This document shows positions 1 to 44,881 of a stretch of DNA of 64,000 bases, piece by piece (position 1 is the stretch's first letter; each line of letters begins with the position of its first letter). A program made the position numbers and the translations under genes. The stretch is from a virus (taxonomy: Duplodnaviria > Caudoviricetes), in IMG/VR virus record IMGVR_UViG_3300037400_003286; one strand, 5' to 3'. Below the pieces are notes generated by a model that saw only the letters and a list, made by a program, of their open reading frames with translations, was not told where the DNA came from and ran no database searches.

Positions 1-54
1 TTCAAGTTCAAGTTCATGCGCACATCTTGTGCAAATAGCACCTTCTGTAATCAT
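1..54 (-). CDS. Partial hypothetical protein (MITEGAICTRCAHELELE..., runs off window edge)
   Basis: ATG overlaps the TAA of the upstream polymerase gene (TAATG coupling); CxxC motif. Confidence 0.5.
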   Translation of the reverse strand, partial: MITEGAICTRCAHELELE

Positions 55-1562
55 TACTGTAAATTGTTTTTAAGTTTCTTTTCTCTTTCTTTTAATATAT
101 CGATCAGATGATATTTCTCTTTTTGAGCTTTAACCATCATCTTTTTATATTCCTTACGTTTAGCGAAGTAATCACTAAGTATCTTAGGAATGAAACCTTC
201 AAATTCGTTAGTGTAAACACATCCGTTTGTACACTTGATTTCATTCTCCTTCGGTATATGGTTCTTATCCTTGAAAAGTAACGTATCTGGTGATATGTTG
301 AACTGTCTCATTGTTGTAGGATAAAGAGAAGCATAGTCCAAGCAATATACGTTTCTGTATATTCCAGGAATAGGTGAAAACACGAAAGCACCTTCATATT
401 CCTTCTTTTCCTTATCTTTCTTTACAACAGGGAATACTCTGTTCTCTCTGTAAAGATATTCCGCCTGTACGATTTCGATACTCTTTGTAGAACTGTATGT
501 TGATAGCACTGGAACATTCATAAGGGAAGCCAAACCGAACATAACAGAACTTGTCTTCAGTTTCTTATCGATCTCTCTAATAAGGACACTATCGATAGCA
601 TTATAGAAAACGTATTCCTTTTTCTGCTTTTCCCACATTTCCTTGAATCCAAGCTGGTGTACAACCTTTTTAACACCAAGAACCTTATCTGCAACCCAGT
701 CAAGTTTATTACTAACCTTAGGAGAAATAGATCGATCATGTTTCTTGTATAACTCCATATAGTCATACATACACTTATGCATCGGTAGCTTAATGTTGTC
801 GGCTGCAACATCCTGTGGCTTATATGTGAACCACGTCTTCGTTGGAGATAAACTTGTTATATCAAGACCTAACTTTGGAACACGGTTATAAAGATAAGGC
901 CAGTCATATCCGAACCAGTTCCATCCTGTTACACACTCAAGTTTATCTATAAAATTAAAGAAAAGATCATTCAGTAACGAAAATTCAGATGCATGATACC
1001 TGTACACAAACTTATAATCAGTATCAAATTGCTTACAATGCTTCTTTATTTCGTCTTGAATCCATTTAATTTCATCCTGTGATAGATTAGCCAGACCTAA
1101 CACGTAAACGGTATCCTCGACAACTATAGACACTGTATTGACAGGTCTCTTTGCGTCTTTAGCCTCTGGAAATCCTTCATCATCAACGTCAACCTCAATA
1201 TCCATGAATGCTGTTTTCGGAATATACATCTGACGCATTTCCTTCAACTGCTCATTTTCTGGGAACCATCTCTCAAGATCCATTATAATTTCATGGACAC
1301 GCTGCTCCGTAAATTTATCTGTAATAGGCTTTTTTACAACTGGCTTTCCGTCCCATGACTTATATAAAGTATCTGGTGTATCATCCTTTGTTGCGTATTT
1401 CCATTGATACATCAATTCATTTGGAATCATCCAAAAGAATGGTTTAACGGTTTGATTCTTATCAACATACGATATATACAGGAATTTCTGTGCTCTACCA
1501 TATTGATCAAGCACTGGTACACCATTCCTTGTATAATCGTGTATTTCCGTGTTAACTATCAT
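54..1562 (-). CDS. polB: Family B DNA polymerase, N-terminal subunit (3'-5' exonuclease plus palm motif A; gp43A-like)
   Basis: ExoI DIEV, ExoII GWNWFGYDWPYL, ExoIII YNAIDS and motif A DYASLYP; ends in the first fingers helix (KRKEYKKMM) without motifs B and C. Confidence 0.93.
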   Translation of the reverse strand: MIVNTEIHDYTRNGVPVLDQYGRAQKFLYISYVDKNQTVKPFFWMIPNELMYQWKYATKDDTPDTLYKSWDGKPVVKKPITDKFTEQRVHEIIMDLERWFPENEQLKEMRQMYIPKTAFMDIEVDVDDEGFPEAKDAKRPVNTVSIVVEDTVYVLGLANLSQDEIKWIQDEIKKHCKQFDTDYKFVYRYHASEFSLLNDLFFNFIDKLECVTGWNWFGYDWPYLYNRVPKLGLDITSLSPTKTWFTYKPQDVAADNIKLPMHKCMYDYMELYKKHDRSISPKVSNKLDWVADKVLGVKKVVHQLGFKEMWEKQKKEYVFYNAIDSVLIREIDKKLKTSSVMFGLASLMNVPVLSTYSSTKSIEIVQAEYLYRENRVFPVVKKDKEKKEYEGAFVFSPIPGIYRNVYCLDYASLYPTTMRQFNISPDTLLFKDKNHIPKENEIKCTNGCVYTNEFEGFIPKILSDYFAKRKEYKKMMVKAQKEKYHLIDILKEREKKLKNNLQ

Positions 1563-5988: not shown

Positions 5989-6279
5989 TTAAATTATTAA
6001 ACCTGACTTATTTTCTTGATTAGCTGATGAATCCTTCGATTCACCTAAAATTCGTGCAGCATTTCCCTTGTCCATATATTCTTGTGGAATTTTTCCACAT
6101 TTTGTACAAACATAAACTGGAATATCTACAATCTCATCTCTACCTGTCATTGTAACAATCTTTGATACTTTCTTCAAGATTGCTGCTGGTGCGAATGTTT
6201 TACATCCGCACTCACATACAATATTAGGAGAGTCAATCACTGCACCATAATTAATGGTTGGATTTCCTATATTTTCCAT
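5989..6279 (-). CDS. Small zinc-ribbon protein
   Basis: CECG...CTKCG. Confidence 0.7.
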   Translation of the reverse strand: MENIGNPTINYGAVIDSPNIVCECGCKTFAPAAILKKVSKIVTMTGRDEIVDIPVYVCTKCGKIPQEYMDKGNAARILGESKDSSANQENKSGLII

Positions 6280-7325
6280 TATTCCTCGTTTTCTTTTTCT
6301 GATGGAATATTCTTTGGCATCTGATCACCGATCACGATACGATATTTTCCATCGTCTGTCCAATCGATACGATGAACATATGCCATGAACATATCACCAA
6401 CAATAAACTCACCTCTATCGAAGCTACTCTCCATATCTGGCGACATTGTGCTTCTGTGCATTAGACTTGCAAACGGATATTCACCATGTGCGTCACGGAT
6501 TGCGCAGAACAAACCGTTCTTAGACTGACCAGTAACACGAACATTAACTCTAAGTCCAGGAGTCAACTCATGCTCAACACGAGAAGGAAGAGTAAGCTCA
6601 AGGTACTTCTTATGCGAAACAACAAAGTTACTTGTCTGCTTCGAGAAGTTAACAACACATACATTCACAGTCTTACCAACAAGAGACTCGAAGTCTGTAA
6701 TCGGACCACTTGCTGCAAGTGAACCAGGAAGGAAGCACTTAACTCCATTAATATCAACAGTGTAACCACCGTTATTAACAGAAAGAATATGAGCAGCATA
6801 TCCGTATTTAGGAGTTCCCTCTTTCAGTTGCTCCATAAAGTCATGCTCGATATTTGCACGAACACCCTCCCAGATAGACACACGATTCTCTACAACCTTA
6901 GCAGTTCTTGCACGTTGCAGGATAATCTCCTTAGCCTCTGGATCCTTCAATGCAGACATGAATTGCTTAACACTACTGCAACCGATTGAATCGATAAACT
7001 GATGTTCCTTATTCATGTCAACCACAGCCGACATACCACCAAATGTGTCAAGAATAACCTCATGATCAGAAACCTGAGTAAGAGACTTAACATTGTAAAT
7101 AGAACCAGTAATCTGATCCTTTGGTGTGTAAACCTGGCCATTGAAATGAGCTTCCATCATATCATAAAGCTCCTGAGCATATGGCTCGTGACAATATACT
7201 ACATCACCATGTTTTGTTTTAACGTTACGATTTGGAATTAAATTTTTACCATTGTAACCATTTTCGTACAACGACCAATCGAAATCAGGATCTGGCTGTA
7301 CATTAGAATACTTTGTATTTACCAT
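6279..7325 (-). CDS. rpsA: Ribosomal protein bS1 homologue, truncated (about 3 S1 domains)
   Basis: N-terminal DFDWSLYENG resembles Bacteroidota RpsA; S1-domain motifs GGYTVDINGVKCFLPGS and NFVVSHK. Confidence 0.75.
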   Translation of the reverse strand: MVNTKYSNVQPDPDFDWSLYENGYNGKNLIPNRNVKTKHGDVVYCHEPYAQELYDMMEAHFNGQVYTPKDQITGSIYNVKSLTQVSDHEVILDTFGGMSAVVDMNKEHQFIDSIGCSSVKQFMSALKDPEAKEIILQRARTAKVVENRVSIWEGVRANIEHDFMEQLKEGTPKYGYAAHILSVNNGGYTVDINGVKCFLPGSLAASGPITDFESLVGKTVNVCVVNFSKQTSNFVVSHKKYLELTLPSRVEHELTPGLRVNVRVTGQSKNGLFCAIRDAHGEYPFASLMHRSTMSPDMESSFDRGEFIVGDMFMAYVHRIDWTDDGKYRIVIGDQMPKNIPSEKENEE

Positions 7326-20187: not shown

Positions 20188-21552
20188 TTAAAATAAACTT
20201 GGTGTATATGTAAGTGTCGGAGGAATTTCAAAATATCCCATAGCAACAACTATACGATTCAACGGACTTAATAACATCTTCTCAAACTGAATATCAATAT
20301 CGATTGCTGGCGCAAATTCAATTGGGAAAGAATCAGGAACAAAGCCGAACACTGTATCTTCACCAGTATAATAGAATCTTACCTTTTCTCCAGACTTTAA
20401 TAGTGAATACTTACTCTTGTATTTCTTTCCCTTGTTGAACAGCATATTGTTATAAACTGCTGCCGCCCTAACATGGATAGGAATAGGAAGCTTATCGTTT
20501 GTCAGATATTCATTACCGTTCTCATCAACCTTTGTCTTAAACTGGAAATATTCAATTTCTGGTGTCTTGTCGTTCTTGACAAAATTCTCATAGTTTGATA
20601 TTCCTTTTGTAATGGAAATATCATTAGGATTCTGCATTACGAAACGTTTCTTGATTTCCTTCAGCTTTGATACTATCTCACTAAGTGTTGGTTTTCTTCC
20701 AGTATTCAGAATACCCATTACATAATTGACGAAAGTCTTCATTTCCTCACGACAATAGTCTGTAGTCGTTCCCTTGACAACATCGAAACCAGTATATGTA
20801 ATATGTTCAAGAGGTTCAAATCTTGCACCAGAATCGATCCATTCAACATCACACATATAATTCTTCTTTGCAAGCATGATGATTGTACGGGAAATCTTCT
20901 CAAGTTCAAACTTCTCGAAGTTGTTCTTACAGTGATTTCTTTCAGCATAATTATCGAACTTGTCATCCATATATGATTCAAGAATCTCCTCATAGAAAGC
21001 AAGGTCAAATTCAAGCTGTTGATCCTCTGGAATATAACAAGCATCAATCAAAGGCTGAAGTGTAATATATGCAGAATTATGAACAAGTATGTCATTTGCA
21101 AAGAACGTATGGGTGTCATCACCCATTTCAATGTCATACACATATTCATTATCATACTCACCTGTACATAAGCATGATACGACTTTATCGGATCCTTCAA
21201 CAATATCACCATACATTACTTCCAATGATAATACATAATCATCTGGATGTATCTCGCAAGGTTTAACTTTATATAGTTTATTGTCTCTCAAAACCATCAT
21301 AGAATGATCATTGGTAACTGTAACAGAATGACCGAATCTCGTTGTTATAGTCCACTTTGGTTTTGATACCTTATGGCGAATTATACGCTTTACGTCACCA
21401 TAGTATAATTGAGAAATGTTTGTAAGGGTCGATCCTTTGAAATTCAATACCTTATCATCAGTATAAACAGATTCATGTCCAGCAAGTGTGGACTCTCCTT
21501 TATTAGATGAACGTATCTTTCTTATTGATACTATTTTTTCAAATTGACTCAT
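20188..21552 (-). CDS. polB: Split-intein C fragment fused to the PolB C-terminal extein (palm/thumb)
   Basis: TNDH block B, VYDIE...FFANDILVHN then SAY; followed by FELE, AKKNY, GFDVVK and PIHVRAA of gp43-like polymerases. Confidence 0.92.
   Translation of the reverse strand: MSQFEKIVSIRKIRSSNKGESTLAGHESVYTDDKVLNFKGSTLTNISQLYYGDVKRIIRHKVSKPKWTITTRFGHSVTVTNDHSMMVLRDNKLYKVKPCEIHPDDYVLSLEVMYGDIVEGSDKVVSCLCTGEYDNEYVYDIEMGDDTHTFFANDILVHNSAYITLQPLIDACYIPEDQQLEFDLAFYEEILESYMDDKFDNYAERNHCKNNFEKFELEKISRTIIMLAKKNYMCDVEWIDSGARFEPLEHITYTGFDVVKGTTTDYCREEMKTFVNYVMGILNTGRKPTLSEIVSKLKEIKKRFVMQNPNDISITKGISNYENFVKNDKTPEIEYFQFKTKVDENGNEYLTNDKLPIPIHVRAAAVYNNMLFNKGKKYKSKYSLLKSGEKVRFYYTGEDTVFGFVPDSFPIEFAPAIDIDIQFEKMLLSPLNRIVVAMGYFEIPPTLTYTPSLF
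21076..21552 (-). mobile_element. IntC of split intein 2 (159 aa; blocks B, F and G; Ser+1)
   Basis: RHKV, TxxH and terminal HN followed by S. Confidence 0.9.
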
Positions 21553-22723
21553 TATTTATATATTTTTTAATCTCAGATAAAATACTATTTCTAACCTTTC
21601 TCTTATTATGTTTATAGTCATCCTCCCAAACAGTTATAATTTTGACACCTATAGTGTCTTTTATATCATTTTCTCTCTGTTTTTCAGATTCCCATATATC
21701 TCCAACGATTCTACCGTTTTGTTCATATAACCCATCAAAAATATCAGTTTCTTTATATACTCCTGGTTTTGGATGAAATTTTATACCATTAAACTCTATA
21801 CATATATTTAAAGTCTTATCATAAAAATCTAAATAATATAAATGATTATTTTTTGTATAAACCTCATATTCATAATTATATTCAGCAAAATATATATCAT
21901 GATCTTTAAATATATCATCTGTTATCAAAGACTTAAACAATTCTTGAGAAATAATAGAATACGATTTGTTTATATATCTGGCATTATTGAAATTATTCCA
22001 TTTATTTAATCCTTCTTCTTCACCATATGTAGTTATAAAATATTCTCTTGTATTACTATAAGCCTCTTTCTCTCTATATTTGTTCCATTTTTCAAGACCT
22101 TCCTTCTCACCATATCTTTTTATAAAATTATCAAGAGTACACGATCTACTTTTATTATAATTATCAAATTCCTCTTCAGTCATTCCATATTTTTCATGCT
22201 TATATTCATATGTGTTTGTTATTCTCTGCTTTTCCAGATAAATATCCCATCTTTTTTGCCCTTCTTCTTCACCATATTTTTTAATAAATGATTCCAAAGA
22301 ACGTATACACAATTCATTATTTTTTTGATTTATTTCTTCCTCTGGAATATCAAATGCATATTGTGCATATATTGTTGGTCTATTAAAAACCCTAGATTTA
22401 TTTTTTATATCAATCCATTCTTTAAAATGTTTTGACATGCATTTTTCACAAACACATAATTTATAAACCTTTCCATTTATCTCTTTTGTTGATATTGGTG
22501 ATGTACCCATATAAACTTTTGGATAATCTTGATACGCTCCTCTAAACCCAACATTCTCATAATACAGTTCACCGCCACAATATTTACACATATTCCTATT
22601 TTCATATATAGGATTATCTTTTAACAAATCTGCAAATTTTTCATATGATTTATTATTATTAAAATCTTCACATCTTTGTTTATTATAATAATTAACTTTT
22701 TTCCCTGATAATACGTCTGGCAT
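21539..22723 (-). CDS. Free-standing homing endonuclease (Zn finger, YGEEEG repeats, Vsr/DUF559-like PD-(D/E)XK domain)
   Basis: CKYC...CVCEKC; KKYGEEEG-type repeats; YLDFY...CIEFNGIKFH...TVWEDD; AT-rich; lies between the split-intein halves. Confidence 0.8.
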   Translation of the reverse strand: MPDVLSGKKVNYYNKQRCEDFNNNKSYEKFADLLKDNPIYENRNMCKYCGGELYYENVGFRGAYQDYPKVYMGTSPISTKEINGKVYKLCVCEKCMSKHFKEWIDIKNKSRVFNRPTIYAQYAFDIPEEEINQKNNELCIRSLESFIKKYGEEEGQKRWDIYLEKQRITNTYEYKHEKYGMTEEEFDNYNKSRSCTLDNFIKRYGEKEGLEKWNKYREKEAYSNTREYFITTYGEEEGLNKWNNFNNARYINKSYSIISQELFKSLITDDIFKDHDIYFAEYNYEYEVYTKNNHLYYLDFYDKTLNICIEFNGIKFHPKPGVYKETDIFDGLYEQNGRIVGDIWESEKQRENDIKDTIGVKIITVWEDDYKHNKRKVRNSILSEIKKYINNESI

Positions 22724-22794
22724 AATAAATTATAAATAGTTTTATTTATTATATTTATTTACAATTTTATGGTGGCTCCTGCATATTTTTGTAA

Positions 22795-23910
22795 TTAAGT
22801 AAAAATTTCATCGTTATATAATATATCATCAGGATATACATAGATGATTTTATCCGATCTTTTTACTTTAACTTTATCGTTCTTATTATATCGTATAATT
22901 TTTCCAGATTCTGTTTTTATTTCAAAAACATCTTTTTCAGAATTTTCTTCATAAAAATCTTCTATAGTAATACCATCAACATGTTTCTTTGTACGAATAA
23001 TAGTATCTTTTGAAACAGAGTCTGTATTATGAACAAGAATACCGTTTGCAAAGAAATTATGATAATTATCTGTATCAGAATCCACTTCAATATCGTAAAC
23101 ATACGCAACATTTCTATTTGATACACACTCTACAGAAAATCCAGAAACACAAATAAGATCATTTTCACCTTTCAAAAATAAAAATGTATCTTTATCTATA
23201 TCATCAGGTTTAACTTCCTTAAAATTAGTATCATAATATTTTAATAAAGAATGATCTTCTGTACAAACAACATAAGTATCATCATTAAACACTTTATATA
23301 ATCTTTTGTTTACTTTGTGTCGCATAACATACTTTATTGGCTTCTTGTCAATCTTTCCAGTAATTAAATCGACACAATATATGCTTCTGTTAGATTTTAC
23401 ACGTTCTTTACCAAACTGATCGATCTCTATATCTGTTCCTTCATTGAAAAGATCTGCAATCATCATAAAAGAATCATCCGAAAGTGTTATCAAACTATCA
23501 CCAACAACGGAATCACCATATACCTGAACGGTGTCTAATTTGATCGTATTATTTTTAGCACACTCAAGGAATTGATCATATTTGAATGCATCACCGAATA
23601 TGTTTCTCAATCTATCAGCGATACGTTTATGACCCTCATAGTCCTGGTTCCAATGATTGTTTATATAATCATTGATTTCAATAACCGAAAACTTAATCAG
23701 ATCCTGTCCCTGAAGAGTAATAGACTCTGCAATGTCTGAATCAGCAAGGTTAAAGAATGCCGTACCGAACACACCATATACACTATTAATAAACGTCTTT
23801 GCGGACAACTGCATAGTGTTATAGTATTCCTCTTCGTTCTCAAGATGATCGATCCTCGATTTAAGCTCTTCAATCGAACAAGTTTCTGGATTAAAATTCT
23901 GTTCTTCCAT
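22795..23910 (-). CDS. polB: PolB middle piece (fingers motif B to YGD), cis mini-intein 1, TD, and IntN of split intein 2
   Basis: QLSAKTFINSVYG, ESITLQGQ, YGD|SVVGDS...VHN|TD|SVSKDT. Confidence 0.92.
   Translation of the reverse strand: MEEQNFNPETCSIEELKSRIDHLENEEEYYNTMQLSAKTFINSVYGVFGTAFFNLADSDIAESITLQGQDLIKFSVIEINDYINNHWNQDYEGHKRIADRLRNIFGDAFKYDQFLECAKNNTIKLDTVQVYGDSVVGDSLITLSDDSFMMIADLFNEGTDIEIDQFGKERVKSNRSIYCVDLITGKIDKKPIKYVMRHKVNKRLYKVFNDDTYVVCTEDHSLLKYYDTNFKEVKPDDIDKDTFLFLKGENDLICVSGFSVECVSNRNVAYVYDIEVDSDTDNYHNFFANGILVHNTDSVSKDTIIRTKKHVDGITIEDFYEENSEKDVFEIKTESGKIIRYNKNDKVKVKRSDKIIYVYPDDILYNDEIFT
22798..23019 (-). mobile_element. IntN of split intein 2 (74 aa, Ser1)
   Basis: Block A SVSKDTIIRT directly after the extein TD; no TxxH. 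Confidence 0.85.
23026..23511 (-). mobile_element. Mini-intein 1 (162 aa, Ser1/Thr+1, no endonuclease)
   Basis: SVVGDSLI, RHKV, TEDH, VYDIEV and FFANGILVHN followed by T. Confidence 0.92.
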
Positions 23911-23992: not shown

Positions 23993-24940
23993 TTAATCAA
24001 ATTTACTTTTTTGTTTCATCACTCCATCGTAGATTCCGTTTTTCTTCATTTCGTCTACTATCATCTGTGATAGTTCTGCGATCTGAGGATGAGGCTTTCC
24101 AGTCTTTCCGAACAATCTCAAGTCAAGGAAAAATCTCCAATCTGATTCATATCCAGTTATACATAACTCTGTTTTCAGGCAAAGAGGAAATACAGCCCTT
24201 GCTTGCTGTGGAGTAAGCGGATTATCCTTGAAACCAGTCTTGAAACGAGCATCTGGTTTTCTTTCATCCCATTTACCACGCAATGCGAAATATACATCCT
24301 CTGTATCTTTCATCAATTGCATGAATGCTTCCTGCTGCTGTAATGTTGCATTTGGGAACCAGTCTGGCATAATATACGCAATATCTGTTCCGTATTTCTC
24401 ATTTGAATAATCAACAAATCTTGTACTCTCCTGAGCAAACGAAAAAGCACGATGTCTTACAGCCTCGTTTGCAATAGCCCTGTCTGTAATCAATCTAAAC
24501 GTATAACGCTTCTCGTGCATATCTGTCGGTTCACACCAGAATTTCAAGTCATCAAGTCTGTTGTTCTCTACAAGCACACGAAGATTTGTAGTCACATATA
24601 CACAATCTTTATCATACTTACATTTTGAATACTTGTTTGTCGAATAAAAATCAAGTTCACACTCATACTCAACCAATTCAATATTGTTCTCGTATTCAAA
24701 ATTCCTATAACACTTGAGATAAACAGCACAGCTTTCAAGCATAGCTGTATGATGAGATTTGATCATTCTTTCCACAAAAGCTTTGGCTCCTTCAAATGTT
24801 CCATCACACTTAGCCTCGCTTTTATAACATGTCCTGGCTGTCTTTTCAATTAATTTATAAACACCCTCAACCCCAGGATCCTGTTTAAGATATTCAGCTT
24901 TCTGTTCTAATAAAATCATAAAACTAACTTTATTTTTCAA
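23993..24940 (-). CDS. thyX: FAD-dependent thymidylate synthase
   Basis: ARTCYKS, RHRAFSFAQESTR ThyX motif, ARAVFP and HPQI. Confidence 0.92.
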   Translation of the reverse strand: MKNKVSFMILLEQKAEYLKQDPGVEGVYKLIEKTARTCYKSEAKCDGTFEGAKAFVERMIKSHHTAMLESCAVYLKCYRNFEYENNIELVEYECELDFYSTNKYSKCKYDKDCVYVTTNLRVLVENNRLDDLKFWCEPTDMHEKRYTFRLITDRAIANEAVRHRAFSFAQESTRFVDYSNEKYGTDIAYIMPDWFPNATLQQQEAFMQLMKDTEDVYFALRGKWDERKPDARFKTGFKDNPLTPQQARAVFPLCLKTELCITGYESDWRFFLDLRLFGKTGKPHPQIAELSQMIVDEMKKNGIYDGVMKQKSKFD

Positions 24941-30474: not shown

Positions 30475-31881
30475 TCAAAAAGTATTATAATTTTTTAATA
30501 TTAGACTAGTCTTTGAAAAACACCTTGAAAACTCCGTATGCGTTTCATCCAGAGAAAGTCTATATCTGGTTTTAGACTTTTTTAGAGCATAATATATATC
30601 CTTCAGACCAGTACCATCTTCTATATTAAATTCTTCCAACGACTTAATATAGAAAATTTTGTATGCACCTAAATCTGGGAATATTATATTACGTTTTATT
30701 TCTTTTATTTTTTCTATATGCTGTAAATTGAATTCATATCCACGTCTTCCTATTTCAATAGAAGCAAGAATCATATCAGGAAGATTTAAAGAACGAAATA
30801 AGAAATTACCTACAAATGAACTGAAATCTGGTTGTACTTTAATAAATTTAATATCAAATATATTACAACGTTTCTGTAAATTTAATTCAAGTTTATTCCT
30901 ACACCAGTTATTATTAACTAACCTATTGTATCGTTTACCTCGTTCAGCATCCTTTGATTTTATATTTAAATCCTCTATGCAGAAAGACTCACATTGATAA
31001 TAAAGACATATATCGATTAATTTTTTAGAAATCTGATATGTTTCGTATGTACGTTTATTATTCAGATATATCTTTTTTGGATCTTCTGAATCTGTATGAT
31101 TTTTTATTAATTTTTCAGATATTTTATTAATCTGTTCAATAGAAAATACACCAGACTTAATTATATTAAACTCATTCTCAGATCTCCAATCAACTATAGA
31201 CCAACCAATATAATTTGGATTCATATCTATAGACATAATACGATTTTCAACAAACCTGTCACGTTTATATTGTTCTATTTTTGATTCATCAAAACTTATA
31301 TAGATATATTCTCTATCCAATGAATAAGTTAATGATACTTCTTTCTTATTCTGCAAATCATATAATCGTGATAAAACCTTTTCACGTTTACCATAAACAC
31401 CTTTAAGCTCAAGTATATAATGATTATGTCTATCGTTTTTGAACTCTATCGAATGCAGATCCTGATTTATCTGAAATTTTCTGTTTCCTTTCTGATTTGA
31501 TTCACCAAGAGAACATAAATTTGATAATCTATGTGAAAGATATTCATCTTTTGATATTAAACCTTTACATCTTCTTATATAATTCTTTCTACCCCCAAAT
31601 ATAATACGTCTTTCTGAATTATCTGATTTTTTAAGTCTATTTACTAAATCAGATGCTTGTTGTTCAGCACAGGATACCATGTGACTATCCATCAACTCAA
31701 CATTATTAAGTTGTGTTTTCATAGCATCCTTTATTTGTTTGGCAGACCAACCATCAATTACACGATTATATCCATAATGAAGAAGTGAACTGTATTGTTT
31801 CATACATTTCAAAATAAAAGCATTTGCTTCTTCATTTACTGAATATTTAAATTTATATGTAATCAATGATTGTGTATTCAT
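30475..31881 (-). mobile_element. tnpB: Solitary IS200/IS605-type TnpB-related RuvC nuclease
   Basis: TYKFKY N-terminus; RuvC-I SIDMNP, RuvC-II IEDL, RuvC-III PDMILASIEIGRRG; AT-rich; no tnpA nearby. Confidence 0.8.
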
Positions 31882-39666: not shown

Positions 39667-41451
39667 TTAATTATTTGGTACTATAGATGTTGGTGGTATC
39701 ACCTGTATTCTTCGTATGAAATCATCAGAGAACATTTTATATGAATTCTGCATCAAATAAGAATAGCATCCATCGAATATAAATGTTACACACCAATCGT
39801 GTTCGTTTCTTATTCCTCTACCTACTCCCTGTAGAATCGATATTGCTGTTGTATTGCTATACCATTCTGGGTTTATATTTTTCTTAGCTTTTACGAATTT
39901 GTCAGCCAGGCTAGGGTATGGAACCTTCATTATAATCTGGAACCTACAAAGATCATCATCGAATGACAAACCTTCTATAAGACTTGGGCCGACAAGAACC
40001 TTATCGTTACAATATTTGAAATATTCTATAGCCTCTGTCTTACCCTTTGTATCATCATATAATATCAACCTCTGTCTTACAGCAGGACCTACATAATCAA
40101 TCAGTTGCTTTGCGAACTGATAGCTTCCAGTTTGTATTATACCTCTCTTACCAGCGTACATATTTATCGTTGCTTCTATCAACTCTGCAACTTTAGGAAG
40201 GTTCTGTTCCTTCTCCTTATATGATAGTCTGTAATCTGGAATATAGAATATAGGCGAATTTGTAAAATCGAATGTCGAAGGTATATCTATAGAATGATAA
40301 TTACTGAACGAACATTCTTTTGCAAACGCATCAGCTTCACCTATTGTGGCAGACATATACATCTTGTTTTTACAATGAGCATGAAAATGCTTATTCATAA
40401 GATAAGACTCATTGATACAGTTAAATGTTATATTGTCTGGTGTAGAATCATCATAATTCTTTACAAGATTCTGTATTCCTACACTTTTTATAATCTCAAC
40501 ATAATCAGAGAATGAACTTATATGATTTTCAAGAAATTCACAATTGTATACGAGGTTTTTATCTTCTTTTGATAATGGTTCATTCTGATCCGTTTTCAAA
40601 GAAATATCTCTTTTGATTGTATCTATACCATCGTTCAACACTTTCATCTTTGAATTATATTCTTCAAGATAATCAAGTATAGAAGCATTGTCAGATGTTG
40701 CTACAATTTTCCTTCTGATAAGTTCAATTTCATCAACTATAGTGTCATTATCAAGACCAGACTCAACGATATTCTTCATTTTTCCTATATCGTCTGGTTT
40801 CATTGCTGGAGAAAAATGATTCTGAACTATACCGACAAGCTTGTGTGCCTCATCACATATAGTAAAATCTCTTTCATTAAAAGGTGCTTGCTCTCTTAAA
40901 AGAGCCTTTACAAGATTTTGCTGAATTAACCAGAACGAATATGTACAAACAAGAAGATCAGCACGCATGGCTTTTTCTCTTTCCTGAATATATGGGCATT
41001 CACATGCACATTCAGGAAACTTCTTCATTATATCACCATACGACTTACATCCTTTTAGCTTACATGCACCAGAACTGAAATTAAAGCCATTAACAAGGCA
41101 CTGGTAATTTTGCTGTCCTTTAATAACACTCCAATTCGGGAAATATTTTTCAACATCTCTCGAATACTGATCAATAAGGTTTAGATCCGATGCCAATATA
41201 TAACCAGTCATATCATAGAATCTGGTTAATACTCCAGCTATGGTTAAAGCTGTGATACTCTTACCAGATCCAGTAGGAGCAGAAATAATAACATTATCTG
41301 TTCCGTTCAACCAATTATCAACAGTTGTGGCTACGGCTTCTTTCTGATTTGGTCTGAATCTGAATGTCGGACCGAAAGACTCCATAGCAACAATATCAAT
41401 CTGCTCATTGATCTTATCTATTCCTGGTGATTTAATATTATTCTTATCCAT
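39667..41451 (-). CDS. DinG/XPD-family SF2 DNA helicase
   Basis: APTGSGKS, DEAH, SAT, KVPYP and QGVGRGIR motifs; Cys cluster; start moved to 41451 because the longer ORF start overlaps the promoter. Confidence 0.88.
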   Translation of the reverse strand: MDKNNIKSPGIDKINEQIDIVAMESFGPTFRFRPNQKEAVATTVDNWLNGTDNVIISAPTGSGKSITALTIAGVLTRFYDMTGYILASDLNLIDQYSRDVEKYFPNWSVIKGQQNYQCLVNGFNFSSGACKLKGCKSYGDIMKKFPECACECPYIQEREKAMRADLLVCTYSFWLIQQNLVKALLREQAPFNERDFTICDEAHKLVGIVQNHFSPAMKPDDIGKMKNIVESGLDNDTIVDEIELIRRKIVATSDNASILDYLEEYNSKMKVLNDGIDTIKRDISLKTDQNEPLSKEDKNLVYNCEFLENHISSFSDYVEIIKSVGIQNLVKNYDDSTPDNITFNCINESYLMNKHFHAHCKNKMYMSATIGEADAFAKECSFSNYHSIDIPSTFDFTNSPIFYIPDYRLSYKEKEQNLPKVAELIEATINMYAGKRGIIQTGSYQFAKQLIDYVGPAVRQRLILYDDTKGKTEAIEYFKYCNDKVLVGPSLIEGLSFDDDLCRFQIIMKVPYPSLADKFVKAKKNINPEWYSNTTAISILQGVGRGIRNEHDWCVTFIFDGCYSYLMQNSYKMFSDDFIRRIQVIPPTSIVPNN

Positions 41452-41543: not shown

Positions 41544-44881
<3,338 letters not shown>

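Follow-up and report, generated by a model that had tools for sequence, protein, structure and literature searches.

A family-B DNA polymerase (PolB) made from three genes, i.e., an N-terminal half, open reading frame (ORF) A, and ORF C, is encoded in a 64,000-nt stretch of viral DNA (Duplodnaviria; Caudoviricetes; IMG/VR record IMGVR_UViG_3300037400_003286; the whole stretch analysed is referred to below as the window), and its C-terminal half is interrupted in the catalytic YGDTDS motif by two inteins that are only the dipeptide Thr-Asp apart. We propose that these are two related class 1, cysteine-independent Ser1/NX mini-inteins, inserted at YGD|TD and TD|S. Intein 1 would be excised in cis, and intein 2 would splice in trans, having been broken after its residue 28 by a cassette that consists of a 46-amino acid (aa) tail, a stop codon, a putative hairpin, the gene of a Vsr-like endonuclease, and a new start codon with a 16-aa leader. 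Both reactions together would restore a C-terminal half of 430 aa with an intact YGDTDSAY sequence. Taken as a whole, this account of a three-gene polymerase with one cis-splicing intein and one trans-splicing intein broken by a cassette is probably correct. Each component belongs to a known kind; the filling of both sites in tandem and the atypical fracture flanked by intein remnants are new variations on these kinds.

All genes of the region lie on the minus strand. The N-terminal half of the polymerase (exonuclease domain and motif A) is encoded by its own gene at 54..1562, approximately 18.6 kb from the C-terminal half (Pfam DNA_pol_B_exo1, E = 1.9e-11; DNA_pol_B, E = 3.1e-22, covering profile positions 18-150), and the polymerase is therefore spread over three genes, as in the Aeromonas phage arrangement gp43A/gp43B1/gp43B2. 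ORF A (371 aa, 22795..23910) begins with a 133-aa N-extein containing motif B and ending in YGD (23512..23910, with the YGD codons at 23512..23520; identified by translation, Pfam, and a phage profile), which is followed by intein 1, Thr-Asp, 74 residues on the side of intein 2, and a stop codon. ORF B (394 aa, 21539..22723) encodes the putative free-standing Vsr-like (I-Bth0305I-type) homing endonuclease and overlaps ORF C by 14 nt. ORF C (454 aa, 20188..21552) is composed of the 16-aa leader, 143 residues of intein 2 (159 residues in total, ending in LVHN), and a 295-aa C-extein beginning with SAYITL (20191..21075; identified by translation, the phage profile, and relatives). Pfam Intein_splicing and DNA_pol_B match both ORF A and ORF C, and the exteins of the two ORFs correspond to positions 7-95 and 85-368, respectively, of one phage polymerase profile of 382 positions. 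In an intein-free relative of 430 aa (P0037), YGDTDSAYITLQ runs uninterrupted through the motif.

Intein 1 (23026..23511; 162 aa, SVVGD to LVHN), recognised from Pfam, translation, and structure matches, is a Ser1 mini-intein without an endonuclease domain, inserted between YGD and TDS, i.e., at the pol-c site. It begins with Ser1, is followed by Thr at +1, and carries RHKV ahead of the block B motif TxxH (TEDH); 55 of 55 clusters retain Ser1, the NX His, TxxH, the Asp of block F, and HN at the end. As a contiguous intein, it should excise in cis. The Thr-Asp middle extein (23020..23025) is evident from the translation, and the junction HN|TD|S recurs in 55 protein clusters. Intein 2 lies between DTD and S (TD|SVSKD... 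and ...VHN|SAY), the PolB1 Aes123-type site; it starts at 23019 (SVSKDTIIRT...), and its terminal HN (21076..21081) is followed directly by SAYITL. It likewise has Ser1 and RHKV ahead of TxxH (TNDH), with Ser at +1. The features of class 1 Ser1/NX inteins (Ser1, [RK]H, TxxH, block F Asp, HN, and Ser/Thr at +1) are thus present in both, the two share 33% identity over 114 residues, and the Pfam family PF14890 (Intein_splicing) scores 37.2 and 44.8 bits on the two ORFs (cut-off 35.8). The solved structure closest to intein 1 is the Aes intein of the DTD|S site (PDB 9HTH), matched by both inteins (E = 1.1e-16 and 3.1e-14). A preliminary description of the window had already read two Ser1 inteins in YGDTDS from the letters, with a Thr-Asp dipeptide between them and the second intein split, and the translation bears this out, as it does the exclusive use of Ser/Thr nucleophiles and the shared RHKV, which is the NX motif of Ser1 inteins described in PolB16 OarG (PMC10189870). 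That each of the two sites is used singly elsewhere is also correct, i.e., pol-c YGD|TDS (PMC549080) and DTD|S in gp43B1/B2 of Aeromonas phage Aes516.

The position of the break in intein 2 was read from alignment with contiguous alleles, which have the sequence ...EDFY.(E/I)NS.|N.G..T.AGHE...; the break therefore falls after residue 28 of 171, an atypical, N-proximal split (28 + 143). The N-fragment core (residues 1-28 with Ser1, 22936..23019) is predicted to dock on ORF C in the complex model described below. The C-fragment core (residues 29-171, 21076..21504; Pfam, alignment, and structure match) contains the NX residues RH, block B TNDH, blocks F and G, and HN, so that a short N-fragment is combined with a C-fragment carrying blocks B, F, and G, as in the atypically split inteins AceL-TerL and PolB16, whose N-fragments comprise only the first strands (about 15-30 aa); the 46-aa tail added to the N-fragment in the window is non-catalytic. 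All catalytic positions are retained in the alignment. Relative to the contiguous alleles the window has two additional segments, 46 residues that follow residue 28 in ORF A and 16 residues at the start of ORF C. The break in the window is not at the canonical endonuclease-insertion site, where it is found in relatives such as L035 and Prevotella phage Lak-C1. A reading of ORF C as a complete mini-intein starting with STLAGHE was rejected, since this stretch corresponds to intein residues 33-39 in contiguous alleles.

ORF B gave no match in Pfam or NCBIfam and no direct sequence match in PDB, and a Foldseek search with its whole AlphaFold2 model (predicted local distance difference test, pLDDT, 92.5) returned nothing below an E value of 0.05. 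Its assignment to the Vsr-like enzymes rests on domain-level structure comparison together with a 45-row profile. Residues 253-394, compared with VIA-align, gave Z scores of 10.7 to 3hrl (DUF559-like), 10.4 to 3r3p_A (the catalytic domain of I-Bth0305I), and 9.6 to 1vsr, and 3r3p_A could be superposed over 97 of 97 residues with a root-mean-square deviation of 2.6; the profile ranks Vsr first with E = 0.16, which is weak as sequence evidence alone. The family comprises 2106 representative clusters. Residues D299, E310, and H317 are invariant. A colinear homologue with 46% identity, preceded by the same inverted repeat, is located between the halves of the canonically split L035, and in Tenacibaculum phage PTm1 an annotated VSR endonuclease stands between split polymerase genes. 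In Prevotella phage Lak-C1 (L038:992-4299, TAG=Q) the polymerase C-terminal half is fractured at DTD|S in the canonical split, with the same endonuclease family between the halves; the Lak-C1 record is unannotated. The window thus shows the features of a fractured gene, i.e., adjacent ORFs with intein halves and, between them, a free-standing endonuclease of the Vsr-like/I-Bth0305I family.

Relatives were found by searches with ORF C and ORF A and were classified against the two-intein relative P0012. The preliminary description had suggested a survey of related polB genes for zero, one, or two inteins, and all of these states occur: no intein (418-437 aa, e.g., P0037); contiguous intein 2 only (594-606 aa, e.g., 601 aa); intein 1 only (P0042 and P0044); both inteins contiguous (732-769 aa, 18 clusters); both inteins with intein 2 canonically split (N parts 410-444 aa, C parts 321-338 aa); intein 2 only, canonically split (about 254 aa); and both inteins with the atypical split of the window (N parts 365-388 aa, C parts 437-454 aa). 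The three-gene layout of the window recurs in four other samples (L031, L032, L033/L034, and L040). In a tree of C-exteins the occupancy states are scattered, and identical C-exteins bear different states, i.e., P0001 (atypically split) and P0002 (intein 2 only), P0029 (both inteins) and P0052 (none), and P0044 (intein 1 only) and P0058 (none). Gain and loss, of the two inteins as well as of the cassette, have therefore taken place on short time scales. An apparent enrichment of intein 1 among intein-2 alleles (18 clusters with both vs. 3 with intein 1 only) was not used, the searches being query-biased. A further insert of ~70-100 aa was seen within the C-extein of P0070, P0077, and P0328, near residue 185 of the 295-aa segment.

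The closest pair of loci, L031 and L040, was used to calculate the ratio of nonsynonymous to synonymous substitution rates (dN/dS). The ratio is 0.06 for the N-extein (0.06 or less for the exteins), 0.11 for intein 1, 0.23 for residues 1-28 and 0.12 for the C core of intein 2, and 0.08 for the endonuclease, compared with 0.47 for the tail and 0.33 for the leader. These values indicate clear purifying selection on both inteins and on the endonuclease, and only weak constraint on the tail and leader. When the N-fragment and residues 1-171 of ORF C were modelled as a complex, the interface score ipSAE was 0.84 (best control, 0.00), a value that 58 of 80 solved complexes attained, as did 2 of 110 mismatched pairs; contact agreement among the runs is at least 92% and the partner pLDDT at least 81. 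In this model intein-2 residues 1-28 touch the NX motif and blocks B, F, and G, and leader residues 2-18 together with residues of the tail lie within the predicted interface. Because split inteins have solved structures, the pass may reflect likeness to them and not binding of this particular copy. The predicted trans-splicing of intein 2 is supported by the conserved catalytic residues, by purifying selection, and by the complex model. Anatomy, homologies, the allele series, and the pattern of selection are observed directly; that both inteins splice we infer.

Two sets of observations weigh against the proposed account. Substitution is faster in the tail and leader than elsewhere (dN/dS 0.3-0.5; in one comparison of 15 codons, 1.6), and both may be remnants in decay. 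In an AlphaFold2 model of the contiguous tandem precursor both HINT domains fold (mean pLDDT 83.9); the model is uncertain at the dipeptide (pLDDT below 50 for residues 189-192) and in domain orientation (predicted template modelling score 0.51), and simultaneous folding of both inteins is therefore not established by it.

The origin of the additional residues can be traced in part. The 46-aa tail (22798..22935) appears in hhalign comparison as a degenerate copy of intein-2 residues ~77-121 (probability 96.9%, E = 1.4e-10; best of 20 column shuffles, 0.019) in which block B is lost and TxxH is missing; its length ranges from 45 to 63 aa, and its strand pattern is conserved across 8 sequences. 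The leader (21505..21552) is similar to the strand with which canonical C-fragments begin (hhalign E = 5.7e-4 over 13 columns; e.g., FEKI.S after the start Met). An inverted repeat upstream of the endonuclease gene (22759..22794) is shared in alignment by atypical and canonical split loci and is conserved in 5 loci; its single-sequence fold is not significant (z = -0.45), and a promoter/terminator scan was uninformative. The same set of parts is found at another position in a distant locus, L005 (6177-9392 of a 387-kb IMG/VR contig of a huge phage), in which the intein is broken after residue ~13. There a tail homologous to that of the window (hhalign E = 8.3e-8) is appended to the N part, an endonuclease of the same family comes next, and ORF C opens with a leader like that of the window before continuing with intein residues 13-41 (E = 1.8e-6). 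That the tail-endonuclease-leader unit occurs at two positions of the same intein allele speaks for a cassette still bearing remnants of the canonical site in which it once resided. We regard the tail and leader as remnants of a canonical split-intein interface, which may still help the halves meet. Recombination between split and contiguous alleles, with subsequent decay, is an alternative that may account for the two positions equally well.

The tail and leader could form a working docking clasp of the cassette, one that permits non-canonical breaks without loss of fragment association; the recurrence of tail, endonuclease, and leader at the L005 break point, the placement of both segments in the predicted interface, and the preserved strand pattern of the tail speak for such a function, and the relaxed constraint on both segments, the variable tail length, the weak leader similarities (E = 5.7e-4 and 1.5e-3), and the finding that a 15-aa N-fragment by itself suffices for splicing of the PolB16 intein (PMC10189870) speak against it, so that we hold it to be plausible but slightly short of an even chance. 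Further still goes the idea that the unit is a mobile, self-docking cassette whose interface clasp allows it to fracture inteins at new positions (~13 or 28) without destroying trans-splicing, and that the endonuclease-less intein 1, ~90 bp away, might spread with it by co-conversion; this we put forward as a rather doubtful extension. In a single contig of 310 nt from run X3, position 21553 is joined to 22783 and base 22801 is absent; the gene of the endonuclease is thereby lost, and ORFs A and C become one reading frame for an uninterrupted intein in which the tail and leader form an insert. This contig hints at an allele lacking the endonuclease. When longer proteins were searched for, no contiguous form with the tail-leader insert came to light. 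P0046, considered as an intermediate with a degenerate C-fragment, was dropped, as only its residues 56-68 match the intein, at positions 16-28 (E = 0.004).

The preliminary description had further suggested that each intein forms the flank of the other, so that splicing would be obligatorily ordered and the order would gate replication. A single Asp does separate Thr+1 of intein 1 from Ser1 of intein 2, and the tandem model is least confident at precisely this dipeptide. However, the nearest flanks (Asp at -1 and TDS at +1 to +3 for intein 1; TD at -2/-1 and Ser at +1 for intein 2) are the same in tandem and single-intein alleles, and whichever intein leaves first leaves the other with its native extein. 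All four occupancy states are found on near-identical exteins, and since C-exteins identical to those of interrupted alleles also occur without inteins, there is no sign of a regulatory dependence. Gating of replication by ordered splicing finds no support here and is unlikely. The related suggestion that either insertion destroys the homing site of the other does not fit this locus: neither intein encodes an endonuclease, and the only one present, a free-standing gene inside intein 2, is inserted within intein-coding DNA, not at the extein junction.

Two explanations that dispense with trans-splicing were also considered. Should ORF B be part of a self-splicing intron, intein 2 would be contiguous in the mature mRNA, and no protein would contain the tail or leader. 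Excision of 21505..22935 would indeed join residue 28 to residue 29 exactly as in the contiguous alleles, and group I introns are abundant in related gut jumbo phages (PMC12880540), but no Rfam family matched within 20800-23700 at E values up to 1, the reading frame of the tail is open and its homology in 8 diverged sequences is evident at the protein level, and in every locus examined ORF C has its own ATG overlapping the stop codon of ORF B; an intron is thus very improbable. Just as improbable is that intein 2 no longer splices and that the C-terminal half of the polymerase works as a non-covalent pair or is dead. The N-fragment has lost its own block B, yet an intact NX motif and blocks B, F, and G are supplied by ORF C, and strong purifying selection and wide conservation are seen in an essential gene. 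That the tandem is an assembly chimera of two alleles, which the preliminary description had named as a possible refutation and which gains something from the coexistence in run X2 of a contiguous intein-2-only allele (joint 21504 to 23570, 21504 being the leader/core boundary), is hardly conceivable in view of the 55 HN|TD|S clusters and of single contigs from separate studies that cross the N-extein, intein 1, Thr-Asp, the intein-2 N-fragment, the tail, and the endonuclease, i.e., X2 record 13 (22803-23601, which runs with one mismatch from the N-extein across intein 1 and Thr-Asp as far as the tail) and X15 record 6 (22186-23123, which links the end of intein 1 with the endonuclease gene).

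The window belongs to a large T4-like phage of the ruminant gut. It encodes a tail sheath, a T4-type portal, a RecA-like protein, ThyX, and a Dam methylase, and among annotated phages it is most closely related to Lak megaphages and other huge phages (~34% identity). The stretch occurs in runs from 13 studies, the uncoded labels being bovine gut or gut metagenome; a megablast search of the locus against phage records gave no match. The slot upstream of the polymerase C-terminal half is occupied by ThyX in the window (23993..24940), by ThyA and DHFR in L032 (2246-3636), and by DHFR in L033 (3151-3648). Other minus-strand genes include a 391-aa major facilitator superfamily transporter (43706..44881; Pfam MFS_1, E = 5.5e-20) among phage replication/portal genes, a 348-aa ORF with an S1 RNA-binding domain (6279..7325; E = 1.8e-6), and a 468-aa ORF with no Pfam or PHROG match (30475..31881). 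A candidate intein in a helicase gene (40780-40926; weak tblastn match, E = 0.006) was discarded as it had no Pfam intein support.

Full-text literature searches returned no description of simultaneous occupancy with a dipeptide middle extein, nor of a cassette with intein-derived flanks. Two filled sites separated by a dipeptide that includes a catalytic aspartate make this the tightest tandem found, and its frequent natural occurrence makes it well suited to studies of the mutual tolerance of adjacent splicing centres. The locus pairs putative cis- and trans-splicing cysteine-independent inteins, a rare kind that is wanted for protein ligation under oxidising conditions. The allele series (contiguous, canonically split, two atypical splits, and a possible endonuclease-less form) records a shift from canonical to atypical splitting.

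Among known systems, the naturally split PolB1 intein of the T4-like Aeromonas phages Aes123/Aes516 (PDB 9HTH) is the best solved match of both window inteins. It resembles intein 2 in its DTD|S site (Aes516 junctions YIDTD|SVVGD... and ...VHN|SVYLN), Ser1/Ser+1, and NX motif, and the Aes polymerase is likewise distributed over gp43A, gp43B1, and gp43B2. It differs in its canonical split (120 + 39 aa), in having no endonuclease gene between the halves, and in the lack of a second intein. PolB16 OarG, an atypically split cysteine-less intein from a sheep gut metagenome that trans-splices in vitro with a 15-aa N-fragment (PMC10189870; PDB 8CPN), shares with intein 2 the PolB host, the ruminant gut, Ser1/Ser+1, the [RK]H NX motif, and a short N- and long C-fragment. 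It is, however, distant (E about 1e-5), its N-fragment is 15 aa vs. 28 residues plus the 46-aa tail in the window, and neither its genomic surroundings nor any endonuclease or adjacent intein is mentioned in the paper (PMC10189870).

Fractured genes with Vsr-like homing endonucleases have been described previously (Dassa et al. 2009, PMC2677866; I-Bth0305I, PMC3239194). The window is like them in having intein halves on adjacent ORFs, and a Vsr-like free-standing endonuclease in between, upstream of which an inverted repeat may form a hairpin as in those genes, and the canonical fractured form is also present in Tenacibaculum phage PTm1 and Lak-C1. The window differs in that the break follows residue 28 instead of the canonical site and that duplicated intein remnants flank it; PolB is absent from the genes listed by Dassa et al. 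(PMC2677866). The pol-c inteins of archaeal PolB, Mimivirus, and Nanoarchaeum (PMC549080) have the exact YGD|TDS site of intein 1, with Ser1 and Thr+1, whereas among the inteins compared, intein 1 is nearest in sequence to those that phages carry at the neighbouring site. Crowding of several insertion sites in one catalytic motif is shared with MCM, in which interference between the neighbouring inteins MCM-a and MCM-d has been studied (PMC10643990), and with DnaB, in which sites a and c are two residues apart and co-occupancy is reported for b and a (PMC4760082). In contrast to DnaB, both sites two residues apart are filled at once in the polymerase described here, and in 55 clusters.

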